A stretch of 64,000 nucleotides of DNA from an uncultured Alphaproteobacteria bacterium (lineage in GTDB: Bacteria; Pseudomonadota; Alphaproteobacteria; Rs-D84). The notes below the pieces were generated by a model. That model saw only the letters and a list, made by a program, of their open reading frames with translations, was not told the DNA's origin and ran no database searches. The translations under genes were made by a program, and so were the position numbers. The stretch lies in NCBI GenBank assembly GCA_947646585.1, contig CANSHD010000001.1, forward strand, positions 248,617-312,616, in the 5' to 3' direction. Positions 3,419 through 47,227 of this stretch are shown piece by piece. The stretch's first letter is position 1. Each line of letters starts with the position of its first letter.

Positions 3419-3511
3419 AAATGTTAAAAAACACCGGCACCCGGGCCCTGCAAAAATCACAAAGATTTTTGTGGGTGGTGATTTGCCGGCGTTTTTTATA
3501 GGTATTTTTCC

Positions 3512-16980: not shown

Positions 16981-17060
16981 GTTCGTGGTGACAAAGGTGT
17001 GTAATTGTTTGCTTCGTCCCAATTGTCACCGCGAGCGCAGCGTGGCGGTCCAGTAAATAT

Positions 17061-17088
17061 TTGCAAAGTGCAACTTTTCTGTTATAAT
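17061..17088 (+). promoter_or_regulatory. sigma70-like promoter TTGCAA-16-TATAAT (closely resembles the tRNA-Val promoter)
   Basis: ttgcaaagtgcaacttttctgttataat vs ttgcaatccgatttttctttgttataat at 36435. Confidence 0.4.
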
Positions 17089-17158
17089 TCCCAATGCATC
17101 GGGTGATACCCGGTGTGAGGTGTCATAACCTCTGAAAACATTAAAACTCCACGATTGG

Positions 17159-17169
17159 TTGGAGGCCTG
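17159..17169. repeat. direct repeat TTGGAGGCCTG = copy of tRNA-Cys 3' end (putative att site of a mini-island)
   Basis: identical 11-mer at 17569-17579, which is the acceptor/CCA end of tRNA-Cys. Confidence 0.6.
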
Positions 17170-17259
17170 TGATATATTTGAATAAACAGGACTATCGTTT
17201 TCGTAGTTATGAACCTCCAACCGCCCTTCATCAAGGCGGTGTTTTTAATTTAAAAACAA

Positions 17260-17538
17260 ATGGAGGCAAAAATGAAAAGAATAGATGAAACGGCCGGCCG
17301 TATTGGTGCGGCAATGCGGCACGCCAGAAACACATGTCACCTGCATCAGGATGACATGGCGGTGCTGTTGCGGATAACGCCGGCCGAGCTATACGCATAT
17401 GAGCGCGGTACATTAAAGATACCCCAGGACGTGCTGGAACGGGTTATTCTGATGGGCTTTAAGATGATACACGTACACAGGCTGGAGCGCCTGTACCGAT
17501 GGCGGCGGGATTTGTTTGAAAAATTAAACAACAATTAA
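17260..17538 (+). CDS. small XRE-family helix-turn-helix transcriptional regulator
   Basis: HTH-like segment DDMAVLLRITPAELYAYERGTLKIP; 92 aa; lies inside the DR-bounded segment beside tRNA-Cys. Confidence 0.5.
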   Translation: MEAKMKRIDETAGRIGAAMRHARNTCHLHQDDMAVLLRITPAELYAYERGTLKIPQDVLERVILMGFKMIHVHRLERLYRWRRDLFEKLNNN

Positions 17539-26126: not shown

Positions 26127-26210
26127 CTGGATTGCCACGGTCGTTTCACTCCCTCGCAATGACAGCGAGCCTGGAACGATTGTCATTGCGAACGAAGTGA
26201 AGCAATCCAG
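26127..26210. repeat. MITE/REP-like nested palindromic element, copy A
   Basis: outer IR ctggattgc/gcaatccag; inner IR ctcgcaatgacag/ttgtcattgcga. Confidence 0.8.
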
Positions 26211-26237
26211 TAAATGATGAACATCGCCGCTTTATTC

Positions 26238-26341
26238 GGAATTGCCGCGTCGGCGTAATCGCCTCCTCGCAATGACAGTGGCGGGTAATGTTGCAATTTA
26301 TCTCCATTGTCATTGCGAGCCCCAACGGGGCGTGGCAATCC
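26238..26341. repeat. MITE/REP-like nested palindromic element, copy B (tandem to A)
   Basis: ggaattgcc..cctcgcaatgacag..ttgtcattgcgag..ggcaatcc. Confidence 0.8.
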
Positions 26342-26343
26342 AT

Positions 26344-38591: not shown

Positions 38592-39155
38592 ATGAAACTG
38601 GTTCTGGTATCTTGTTGCGCGCCGTGCAGCGCGGGCGCAATAAAACAATTGGCGGACGGGCAAATCCCGGACGTCGATGATTTTGTCGTGCTGTTTTTCA
38701 ACCCGAATATTTTTCCTGCGTCCGAATATCAAAAGCGCATGGCGGAACAGATAAAATACTGTGACACGCTTGGCGTAAAACACGTGGAATTGGAATACGA
38801 CCACGCCGCATGGCGCGATGCGGTGGCGGGGCTGGAATCCGAACCCGAACGCGGTGCGCGGTGCAGTGCGTGTTTTGAGTTTCGTTTTGCACGCGCGGCC
38901 CGTTTCGCCCGTGAAAACGGTTATGATGCGGTGGCGTCGGTTCTGGGCGTGTCACGACATAAAGACCAGACCCAGGTTGACTGTGCGGCGTCCGCGGTAT
39001 GCGGTAACGTAAAATATTTACCGATAAAGTGGGACGAAGCGCTGCGTCAACAAATCGGCCGTGCATCCGACTTTTACCGCCAGAATTATTGCGGTTGTGA
39101 ATTTTCTATACGCAAAGCAGCGGCATTGATTCCGGATACCATTCAAACAGCGTGA
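38592..39155 (+). CDS. queH: epoxyqueuosine reductase QueH (DUF208)
   Basis: LVSCCAPCS motif and downstream Cys pairs (CSAC, CGC); 187 aa. Confidence 0.72.
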   Translation: MKLVLVSCCAPCSAGAIKQLADGQIPDVDDFVVLFFNPNIFPASEYQKRMAEQIKYCDTLGVKHVELEYDHAAWRDAVAGLESEPERGARCSACFEFRFARAARFARENGYDAVASVLGVSRHKDQTQVDCAASAVCGNVKYLPIKWDEALRQQIGRASDFYRQNYCGCEFSIRKAAALIPDTIQTA

Positions 39156-39548
39156 ATATCATTATTTGCTGATATACGCTTGGCTTTTTATTTTTTGCGA
39201 TAATTGAATTATATTCAGACTCGGTTTCCAAATCCATTGCATTGCACATAATGTATATCGGTATGTCGGCATGGATTCTGGCGGCCTCTATGCGTTGCCC
39301 GGTCAGCATCTGAATTCCCCCGTGATTTTATAAAGAAAAAACCATCGGAATAAAATTCAGATGGCTGGAGGTTCACTACTATAATCAGCTATAGCGTCGC
39401 TTATTCAATATATTCGCGACCCTCCAGCCAGTGGTTGGAGATTTTCTGTTTTTTACAAACAGGCTGAAAAGGGGTAGCGAACCCCGCCCACGGAATACCC
39501 GCCGGCAAATATATTATATATTGAATAAAAACAATTTGCAAATAATTA

Positions 39549-39651
39549 CTGGATTGCTTCGGCATTCGCCTCGCAATGACAAAGGCGCGGAATGTTGCGC
39601 TTCATCACTCTTGTCATTGCGAGGAGGGCATAGCCCGACGTGGCAATCCAG
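39549..39651. repeat. MITE/REP-like nested palindromic element, copy C
   Basis: ctggattgc..cctcgcaatgaca..ttgtcattgcgagg..ggcaatccag; same family as 26127-26341. Confidence 0.8.
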
Positions 39652-39728
39652 TCAATGATGTATACGATTTATTTGCGATTGCAAATTTTTATGTCTATAA
39701 TTTACCCGTGATTTATTAAGGAGGACGT

Positions 39729-40604
39729 ATGTCATCTGTATTTGTATTCCCGGGCCAGGGCGCGCAGAGCGTCGGCATGGGCCGCGAATTGTATGAAACA
39801 AACCCGGCCGCCCGCGCCGTGTTTGATGAGGTGGACGCGGCATTGGGTGAAAAATTGACGGATATTATATTTAACGGTCCGGCGGACGATTTGACGTTAA
39901 CGCGCAATGTTCAGCCTGCGATTATGGCCACGTCCATTGCGATGCTGCGCGCGTCGGGTGCCGAATTGCCGGAATATGTGGCCGGCCATTCTTTGGGCGA
40001 ATATACGGCGCTGTGTGCGTCGGGTGCATTGTCTGTGGGCGATGCGGCGCGTCTGTTGCGTGCGCGCGGCGACGCAATGCAAAGCGCGGCCCCGGCCGGA
40101 ACCGGGTTAACCGCGGTTATTATCGGTATGGATATTGATGCGCTGCGCGGGCTGTGCGATGGCACGGATGCGGATGTTGCAAACGACAACTGCCCGGGCC
40201 AGGTTGTGATTTCCGGTGCCAAAGACGCGGTTGAATGCGTCATGGCCGCGGCAAAAGAGGCGGGTGCCCGTCGTGCAATGCCGCTGGCGCTGTCGGTGCC
40301 GGTTCATTGCCGTATGCAGGCCCCGGCCGCGGACGCCATGCGCGCCGCGTTGGAGCAGGTGGAGATTAAAAAGCCGTCGGCGACATTTATCGCGAACAAG
40401 ACCGCCGATGTCATGATGGACCCGGCCGAAATAAAGGAAGAATTGATTTATCAAATGACGCATGGTGTGCGCTGGCGCGAAAGTGTTCTGCGTATGCATG
40501 CGCTGGGTATTACGGAAATGACAGAGGTCGGCCCCGGCAACGTTTTAACGGGCCTGTGCGGCAGAATTTGTTCTGAAATTAACGCAAAAAAATTGGAGAT
40601 ATAA
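39729..40604 (+). CDS. fabD: malonyl-CoA:ACP transacylase
   Basis: FVFPGQGAQSVGMG; active-site GHSLGEYTAL. Confidence 0.9.
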   Translation: MSSVFVFPGQGAQSVGMGRELYETNPAARAVFDEVDAALGEKLTDIIFNGPADDLTLTRNVQPAIMATSIAMLRASGAELPEYVAGHSLGEYTALCASGALSVGDAARLLRARGDAMQSAAPAGTGLTAVIIGMDIDALRGLCDGTDADVANDNCPGQVVISGAKDAVECVMAAAKEAGARRAMPLALSVPVHCRMQAPAADAMRAALEQVEIKKPSATFIANKTADVMMDPAEIKEELIYQMTHGVRWRESVLRMHALGITEMTEVGPGNVLTGLCGRICSEINAKKLEI

Positions 40605-47075: not shown

Positions 47076-47093
47076 ACGACGTTAAATATACAG

Positions 47094-47113
47094 CTCCTGA
47101 CCCGGGTCAGGAG
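47094..47113. promoter_or_regulatory. 20-bp perfect palindrome CTCCTGACCCGGGTCAGGAG upstream of the Cys-rich operon
   Basis: perfect dyad; CCTCCTGACC half repeated at 47164-47173. Confidence 0.45.
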
Positions 47114-47227
47114 GGTTGCGAATATATTGAATAAGCACGCAATTCATGTAAATTGTTATCAGCCTCCTGACCACCAAAATTTGGTGGTTTTTTGTTTCAC
47201 ACAAACAAAAACCAAGGAGGTTTGAAA

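Follow-up and report, generated by a model that had tools for sequence, protein, structure and literature searches.

The window, the whole 64-kb stretch of DNA analyzed here, carries the gene order metG-queH-fabD-fabG-mnmG. Its host is an uncultured alphaproteobacterium, which is also the label borne by homologs of its FabD and ParB. Between queH (38592-39155) and fabD (39729-40604) lies a 103-nt nested palindrome with a tail, called copy C here (39549-39651). A nested inverted repeat and tail had been described in this spacer by the original prediction, and the sequence is as described. The outer stem is formed by CTGGATTGC and GCAATCCAG, and the inner stem by CCTCGCAATGACA and TGTCATTGCGAGG. 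The order of the parts is CTGGATTGC-ttcggcattcgc-CTCGCAATGACA-(30-nt loop)-TGTCATTGCGAG-gagggcatagcccgacgtg-GCAATCCAG, followed by TCAATGATG. The features of the element and its surroundings are the following (Ssn stands for a family of nucleases introduced below):

39541-39513, minus strand: promoter TTGCAA-17 nt-TATAAT (promoter scan)
39522-39664: inserted block of about 143 nt, absent in close relatives, with edges uncertain by a few nt (alignment with loci L128/L129 and L130/L131, and tree)
39522-39548, minus strand: AT-rich outer tail of the left unit, reading CCAG-TAATTATTTGCAAATTG... on the minus strand (tail common to copy D and locus L144)
39549-39557: left outer arm CTGGATTGC
39549-39581, minus strand: left hairpin unit, inverted, with TGTC head, ATTGC...GCAAT stem, C and CAG tail on the minus strand (nhmmer E = 1e-7, ssDNA fold)
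39569-39581: left inner arm CCTCGCAATGACA
39582-39611: variable central loop of 30 nt between the two heads, the predicted site of Ssn cleavage on either strand
39612-39624: right inner arm TGTCATTGCGAGG
39612-39651, plus strand: right hairpin unit with TGTC head, ATTGC...GCAAT stem, C and CAG tail (nhmmer E = 1.1e-7, ssDNA fold)
39642-39651: right outer arm GGCAATCCAG
39652-39660: tail segment TCAATGATG
39652-39664, plus strand: outer tail of the right unit, TCAATGATGTATA (its counterpart in copy A is TAAATGATGAACA)
39673-39701, plus strand: sigma-70-like fabD promoter TTGCGA-17 nt-TATAAT, intact and directly downstream of the insertion

The units are 33-40 nt long. As single-stranded DNA each folds into an ATTGC/GCAAT closing stem of only 5 contiguous pairs, usually around a nested hairpin, with head and tail unpaired. 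The closing stem encloses a small GGC/GCC hairpin in the left unit of copy C and a GGGC-ata-GCCC hairpin in the right one. Both halves are hairpins in their own right, each with a short tail and an unpaired TGTC head, so that an element amounts to two oriented units in head-to-head arrangement, a structure beyond what had been predicted. The pair is very stable both as RNA (-54 kcal/mol, z = -5.9) and as DNA (-32 kcal/mol, z = -7.2), and in neither case did any shuffled sequence fold as well. Taken singly, the units were no more stable than shuffled sequence (z = -0.2 to -1.8).

Four copies were found in the window by a repeat finder and alignment, namely copy C and the following three:

16981-17053: copy D, degenerate, with the left unit reduced to its inner arm and the right unit complete
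26127-26219: copy A, a head-to-head pair plus a TAAATGATG tail (element to 26210, tail to 26219)
26238-26342: copy B, a head-to-head pair with its outer end shortened relative to conspecific genomes

All four have the head-to-head arrangement. A unit profile built from other genomes recognized exactly six units in the window, those of copies A, B, and C. The ompA-family and parB genes are convergent and have a terminator each, with copies A and B in between, and copy D lies 3' of the biotin carboxylase gene. In the window copies the head is TGTC and the tail CCA(G). TGTC stands directly 5' of ATTGC and a C directly 3' of GCAAT in all window units; in copy D these positions adjoin ACCGC and GCGGT, as its stem has changed from ATTGC/GCAAT in a compensatory manner. 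The tail CCAGTAAATATTTGC follows copy D (17050-17066) as well as a minimal hairpin in L144, and it is the same as the left-unit tail of copy C.

Copy C had been predicted to be a third copy of one palindromic element, and this is borne out by exact 12-mers common to it and the tandem copies at 26127-26342. The 12-mer TGTCATTGCGAG has five exact occurrences in the window and one with a single mismatch, which together make up the arms of three elements; the number of exact matches expected by chance, counting both strands of the 64 kb, is about 0.008. Two occurrences of the tail motif GGCAATCCAGTMAATGATG compare with 0.02 expected. When the copies were aligned, the outer and inner arms were conserved and the loops and inter-arm segments were unrelated. 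Thus, their likeness is not confined to chance palindromes. Integron attC sites, CRISPR repeats, and dif-like sites were considered and dropped, as there is no R-box GTTRRRY and no cassette-sized or regular spacing.

The repeat family was then defined across genomes with the pattern CTCGCAATGACA-N8-38-TGTCATTGCGAG, scanned in one genome per species. At least 119 loci, representing at least 13 phyla, contain the 24-nt core. Hosts among the matches listed belong to the Chloroflexota, Planctomycetota, Desulfobacterota, Bacillota, Alpha- and Gammaproteobacteria, Cyanobacteriota, Campylobacterota, Nitrospinota, Nitrospirota, Patescibacteria, Fibrobacterota, Spirochaetota, and KSB1. All 139 elements among the matches listed follow the plan of left unit, loop, and right unit, their head-to-head form being given by construction of the search pattern. 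The family plan can be written as GAGATTGC(Y)(W)CG - X - CTCGCAATGACA - loop - TGTCATTGCGAG - X' - CG..GCAATCTC, and the family is referred to below as the ATTGCGAG type. X and X' vary independently and are either mutually complementary or each form their own small hairpin. The unit interior ranges from 9 to more than 50 nt (modal lengths 9 or 15-17 nt) and often holds a nested hairpin. The central loop of the 139 elements is 8-38 nt long and unconserved in sequence; conservation is strongest in the internal arms and not at the termini. GTC, itself part of the search pattern, is preceded by T in 85% of 923 family units and by C in 9%. The C after GCAAT, a position that the pattern does not select, is present in 821 of 832 units elsewhere. 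Alphaproteobacterial copies have CTGG/CCAG ends as in the window, and in other phyla the tail is mostly CTC or CCC. Where units form arrays, they alternate in orientation. A literature search with the core sequence returned literal matches to unrelated PCR primers only.

The head-to-head pattern was also detected in 19 viral contigs of IMG/VR (L231-L249). One further viral contig (L230) carries an Ssn homolog flanked by units. A gene for a P22-like portal protein is common to nine element-bearing loci of Clostridia/Bacillota (L011, L027, L035, L036, L041, L046, L067, L121, and L125). Phages may carry the Ssn/repeat system between hosts.

The partner of the repeat was identified by clustering the ORFs of element-bearing loci without prior assumptions about neighbors. 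The clustering returned housekeeping families, the P22-like portal protein, and a GIY-YIG protein of about 95 aa, which is sandwiched between units in seven loci from different phyla. The association was tested in reverse with 81 loci (80 metagenomic and one viral) selected solely because they encode a relative of this protein. Within 400 nt of the gene, 80 of the 81 loci have GTCATTGCGAG or its complement (an 11-mer, with at most one mismatch). The 11-mer is present on both sides of the gene in 73 of the 81, and in 58 of the 62 loci with at least 200 nt of flank on each side. The usual geometry (50 of 81) is right unit, gene, left unit, with the heads pointing outward. In this cassette, TGTCATTGCGAG-X-GCAATCTC is followed after 10-20 nt by the ORF, whose stop codon abuts GAGATTGC-X-CTCGCAATGACA. 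In five loci the gene takes the place of the loop in a head-to-head pair.

The Ssn family of small single-domain GIY-YIG ssDNA nucleases (cd10448) has recently been described (Chenal et al., Nat Commun 2025; PMC11893778). Its member in Neisseria meningitidis, SsnA, is a 94-aa single-domain protein of the same domain class (cd10448), and its activity is abolished by the substitutions Y6A, Y17A, and E64A (PMC11893778). With the N. gonorrhoeae SsnA ortholog, the GIY-YIG protein of the present loci shares 52% identity, and the Tyr, Tyr, and Glu that match SsnA Y6, Y17, and E64 are retained. Homologs in N. gonorrhoeae, Azospirillum lipoferum, Sinorhizobium meliloti, Novosphingobium aromaticivorans, Rhizobium, and Planktothrix are flanked in the same geometry by the species' own CGTC- or TGTC-headed hairpin, which in Neisseria is dRS3. 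All six loci with a CGTC/TGTC-type repeat from plasmid records flank an ssn homolog. The repeat family is the partner of a GIY-YIG ssDNA nuclease, which goes beyond the original prediction. The closest solved structure to the protein is 1ZG2, an uncharacterized UPF0213 protein, and neither NCBIfam nor PADLOC has a family for the Ssn nuclease. Literature searches that paired GIY-YIG proteins with REPs, MITEs, or transposases were empty, and one on COG2827/UPF0213/YhbQ yielded a single repair-oriented note on Caulobacter. In the PLSDB record that holds the gonococcal ssnA ortholog (L250, NZ_CP119140.1 1881878-1882953), the gene has no annotated feature, and the record itself is a chromosome-sized sequence of 2.17 Mb labeled as a plasmid.

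The first mechanistic idea about these elements was a RAYT or IS200-type transposase. Copy C would then be a REPIN-type element, a pair of REPs mobilized by a Y1/HUH transposase (RAYT) as in Pseudomonas and E. coli. Such elements would have in common with the present copies the inverted pairs of short hairpins, the tandem clusters, the intergenic position, and the lack of target-site duplication, and the closest older literature places such repeats beside REPs. However, the head is TGTC/CGTC and not GTAG, and the gene that tracks the repeat encodes a GIY-YIG nuclease. Y1 queries validated against Pfam Y1_Tnp and PDB 4ER8 gave no match at E <= 1 among about 5,000 ORFs from the window and the 119 loci, and the idea was rejected. 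Furthermore, no transposase was found beside CGTC repeats in an earlier survey (Di Nocera et al., 2013; PMC3733652). A REPIN origin is very unlikely on this evidence.

How copy C came to its place was addressed with relatives chosen via FabD homologs, which form a graded series with the same gene order. Across the fabD-mnmG DNA, mutual identity among the window, L126, and L128 is about 94%, and L130, L133, and L134 are outgroups at about 79%. Both L128/L129 (about 94%) and L130/L131 (about 79%) are colinear from queH to fabD and do not have positions 39522-39664. Outside this gap of about 143 nt, they align base for base with the intergenic region of the window. The absence of the block from relatives at both distances points to an insertion in the window's lineage, and a single gain of copy C in that lineage would be the parsimonious reading of the alignments. 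A target-site duplication was considered at the fabD site, as the AT-rich left 27 nt resemble the right flank (TTTGCAAAT vs TTGCAAAT). These 27 nt match the tails of copy D and L144 better and are therefore read as part of the unit. No clear target-site duplication emerged from the comparison of filled and empty fabD sites.

This last result weighs against another explanation, a classical MITE, that is, a deletion derivative of an IS with a DDE transposase, bounded by terminal inverted repeats and a target-site duplication. The pair CTGGATTGC/GCAATCCAG could serve as terminal inverted repeats, and the small size and insertion polymorphism would fit as well. Nevertheless, no DDE transposase recurs near the elements, and besides the missing duplication, the emphasis of conservation on the internal arms and the modular pairing of independently varying units make a MITE highly improbable.

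The site of copies A and B is empty in L148/L149 (ParB 84% identical), so that empty sites in related genomes, which had been proposed as a check, exist both at the fabD site and at the parB/ompA site. Genomes with 100% identical ParB (L136-L138 and L143) carry a single hybrid element in which the outer halves of B and A are joined and the loop of A is inverted. Other conspecific contigs have a third left arm at this site and break inside it. At least three different states of the parB site exist among genomes with 100% identical ParB. In L144-L146 (ParB 97%), the site is occupied by a minimal hairpin, GATTGCC-cagt-GGCAATCCAG, together with a cassette of leader and ORF. In L144 the hairpin (3428-3459, GATTGCC-cagt-GGCAATCCAGTAAATATTTGC) is made up of nothing but the outer arms and a 4-nt loop, at a place held by full elements in conspecifics. 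It has the appearance of either a collapsed element or the unit in its simplest form. Gain, loss, and recombination have therefore occurred within a species time scale, and the filled and empty sites support the predicted dispersal of the element as opposed to local tandem duplication.

Assembly data point in the same direction. Four Logan contigs (L001, L003, L004, and L005) from different sequencing runs or samples all start at window position 39553, 4 nt inside copy C, and run rightward without further breaks. This common start suggests variants existing side by side whose differences are confined to the sequence left of 39553.

These observations bear on whether the repeats are still active. 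They could be inert relics, descendants of an Ssn-associated repeat whose nuclease has been lost and which now change by drift and by ordinary homologous recombination or replication slippage at palindromes. No ssn gene is present in the 64-kb window or in the ~9-kb loci of the relatives, so the copies could be orphans of this kind; copy D is degenerate and copy B truncated, and ssn is present in 81% of repeat-rich genomes but not in all (PMC11893778). On the other hand, copy C was gained within a group about 94% identical in the flanking genes. This recent gain, the several states of the parB site, and the common break of four contigs at one base point to ongoing activity rather than decay, and inert relics are unlikely. 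Copy C is thus shown to be a real, dispersed, and recently inserted repeat, and the inserted DNA consists of two Ssn-type units.

The insertion was placed between two divergent promoters. The -35 box of the minus-strand promoter, TTGCAA (39541-39536), lies within the inserted tail of the left unit, and this promoter faces a structured leader and a 67-aa ORF. The same arrangement of tail and -35 box precedes the homologous leader at copy D and in L144. Supplying a -35 box from its tail is one possible function of the element, or the insertion may merely be tolerated by selection.

The leader is itself a repeated structure (17128-17252, plus strand; 39452-39318, minus strand; 47090-47215, plus strand; and L144 3527-3650) with no Rfam match. 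It has a long stem, TGGYTGGAGG...CCTCCARCC, around two hairpins, one of which has the nearly invariant loop GAWATATWTTGAATAA, and compensatory changes are seen in 10 of 21 predicted pairs across the four copies. An intrinsic terminator, an RBS, and a small ORF follow. The ORFs encode a 92-aa HTH protein (17260-17538) and a 67-aa product (39309-39106, minus strand), and a further one starts near 47227. The cassette of leader and ORF is also present or absent between close relatives. A 75-aa ORF that spans copy C (39431-39658, plus strand) matches no Pfam entry or family and is an artifact of the repeat.

A very stable intergenic hairpin that adjoins promoters could also be a functional RNA or transcription element (a terminator, mRNA-stabilizing hairpin, attenuator, or small RNA) kept to regulate queH or fabD, and REP-like hairpins can stabilize mRNAs in other bacteria (PMC3733652). 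However, no U-tract or T-run follows copy C, and a terminator scan does not call it. At the gathering threshold Rfam recovered three tRNAs only, and a permissive scan of 39280-39700 gave no credible match. Relatives in which these genes and promoters are retained do not have copy C. Copies A and B are located beyond the terminators of both convergent genes, a place where transcription should be low, and the loops and inter-arm segments are unconserved. SsnA, for its part, touches neither dsDNA nor RNA (PMC11893778). Taken together, a conserved regulatory role of this kind is improbable.

The gene-bearing form of the repeat moves as well. In A. lipoferum 4B (L251, NC_016623.1 255106-256184), the sufB stop codon is immediately followed by an ssn cassette, which occupies the sufB-sufC spacer within the suf operon. 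The cassette is absent from this spacer in A. ramasamyi (flanks 97.8% identical), A. oryzae, strain B510, and A. brasilense. A different, independent ssn cassette with its own repeat type occupies the same spacer in Shinella sp. PSBB067 (L258). By comparison of these sites, unit-ssn-unit cassettes have been shown to be gained at new sites in other genomes.

Other nuclease genes were seen in the same spacers. A DUF559 gene lies in the sufB-sufC spacer of a Sphingomonas plasmid (Sphingomonas parapaucimobilis NZ_CP155753.1). In the queH-fabD spacer of one relative (L132/L133, 2236-3414), a DUF559/MTES_1575 domain (Vsr-like endonuclease) follows QueH or is fused to it. Small stand-alone nuclease genes seem to share such intergenic landing sites.

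The favored reading of copy C is that of a non-coding, dispersed head-to-head pair that serves as repeat partner of Ssn; a cognate Ssn encoded by the host would nick its loop and so promote recombination and spread. We consider this likely. Binding of Neisseria SsnA and three tested homologs to their respective hairpin repeats requires single-stranded DNA, which they cut a few nt 5' of the head (PMC11893778). Each unit here has an unpaired 5' TGTC head, an ATTGC...GCAAT closing stem around a variable interior, an invariant C, and a short tail. By analogy, when the region becomes single-stranded during replication or repair, or in incoming DNA, each unit would be bound by a cognate Ssn whose gene lies elsewhere in the genome. 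Nicks would be expected about 3 nt 5' of the head, as extrapolated from Chenal et al., and both cuts of a head-to-head pair would fall in the central loop, one per strand. Nicked loops could then act as recombination hot spots and allow the element to be copied to new sites. The central loop is the unconserved part of the element; strains differ in its orientation, and at the parB site the recombinant joint lies within it. The positions that matter in mutagenesis are also kept, as GTC and the C after the palindrome are present in every window unit, including copy D despite its compensatory stem. Against this reading, the enzyme is a hydrolytic nuclease with no known strand-transfer activity, and the heads point inward in solitary pairs and outward in the common gene-bearing cassette. 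The lack of an ssn gene in the window and in the ~9-kb loci of relatives, the misfit of the units to the published SRM search sequence (below), and the short closing stem, with single units no more stable than shuffled sequence, count against it as well. A cognate Ssn in this host, spread driven by its cutting, and any function of the element for the host are what we infer.

A more far-reaching proposal can be made only tentatively. The cassette of about 400 bp (head-unit/ssn/unit-head) might be an autonomous selfish element that uses a GIY-YIG nuclease in place of a transposase, with gene-less pairs as non-autonomous passengers copied to new intergenic sites after loop nicks. The ATTGCGAG type might then be a single lineage spread across at least 13 phyla, partly on phages. 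The gains of sufB-sufC cassettes in two genera, the gain and reshuffling of gene-less pairs within species, and the presence of both forms on viral contigs are consistent with this proposal, which we nevertheless hold to be doubtful. If true, the ssn cassette would be among the smallest self-mobilizing DNA elements in bacteria.

Several consequences follow for the annotation and study of such repeats. An anonymous palindrome has been placed in a defined system, the hairpin recognition sites of a nuclease family that acts only on ssDNA and limits the uptake of foreign DNA in Neisseria, where SsnA reduces transformation by DNA bearing its target (PMC11893778). The ATTGCGAG type spans many phyla, including uncultured groups. 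Filled and empty sites together with recombinant alleles are direct evidence, at the sequence level, for movement of the gene-less pairs as well as of the gene-bearing cassette. The elements also break short-read assemblies and create spurious ORFs, and repeat-made ORFs such as 39431-39658 are likely to be misannotated as hypothetical proteins.

The system can be compared with three that have been published. REP/REPIN-RAYT systems also have a gene for a small nuclease between inverted hairpin repeats, alongside numerous dispersed hairpin pairs that lack the gene, and they too rely on the recognition of folded ssDNA. They differ in their enzyme (an HUH tyrosine transposase as opposed to a hydrolytic GIY-YIG nuclease) and in their head (GTAG as opposed to TGTC/CGTC), and no RAYT was found here.

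The CGTC-tagged REPs, families CGTC-1 to -4, are closer (Di Nocera, De Gregorio and Rocco, BMC Genomics 2013; PMC3733652). They include Neisseria dRS3 and Rickettsia RPE-4 and RPE-6, and occur mostly as head-to-head dimers; their unpaired head reads CGTC, TGTC, or CCTC, and their tail of 3 nt is similar to CCA (PMC3733652). Their stem of 8-9 bp starts with AT and closes a loop of 4-5 nt, they are distributed over five phyla, no transposase was found nearby, and they were concluded to have no dedicated transposase or other enzyme (PMC3733652). The window copies resemble them in the TGTC head, the stem starting with AT, the CCA tail, the head-to-head dimers, and the lack of a nearby transposase, and both have many hosts in the Alphaproteobacteria. 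In contrast, the stem is shorter here and the interior much longer than the 8-9 bp and 4-5 nt of CGTC-tagged REPs, the distribution is much wider, and there is a dedicated enzyme, the GIY-YIG Ssn protein.

The closest system is that of the "Ssn-related motifs" (SRM), which flank thousands of Ssn homologs (PMC11893778). In Neisseria the motif is the NTS, an oriented dRS3 that SsnA binds only as ssDNA and cuts a few nt upstream; the GTC 5' of the palindrome is needed for cutting, and the C 3' of it is most important for binding (PMC11893778). The NTS-ssnA-NTS layout was likened to an insertion sequence, and its movement was put forward as a hypothesis only (PMC11893778). The SRMs of Chenal et al. 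(2025) are equivalent to the CGTC-tagged REPs of Di Nocera et al. (2013). Like SRMs and the NTS, the units described here are oriented hairpins with GTC directly 5' and C directly 3' of the palindrome, present in many copies that are mostly intergenic. Window units form an imperfect, hairpin-forming palindrome of about 20-50 nt, as SRMs do, and at the family level units flank a ~95-aa single-domain GIY-YIG gene in the order unit-gene-unit. The differences lie in the palindrome. That of the ATTGCGAG type is ATTGC...GCAAT, with 5 contiguous pairs and a long variable interior, whereas the NTS has an 8-bp stem and a 4-nt loop. In addition, one ATTGCGAG motif is kept across proteins 40-68% identical and at least 13 phyla. 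The published SRM search sequence, HGTCWYN(0-2)YYVSBRHN(0-5)WNVSBRGN(0-2)RNCYNB, matched the positive controls (Neisseria, Azospirillum, Rhizobium, and S. meliloti) but none of the six window units, and only two of the 81 Ssn loci had any match. The ATTGCGAG units are therefore filed as an SRM-like variant outside the operational definition. By analogy, this type is expected to work like an SRM, with binding and cutting as predicted from the known enzymes. The published motif misses the ATTGCGAG type, which nevertheless lies beside nearly every close homolog sampled from metagenomes, so the extent of the Ssn-repeat partnership has probably been underestimated. Since the pairing of repeat and Ssn had already been published, the association reported here is an independent rediscovery and not a new finding. 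Copy C belongs to a variant of the known Ssn-repeat system rather than to a new system.
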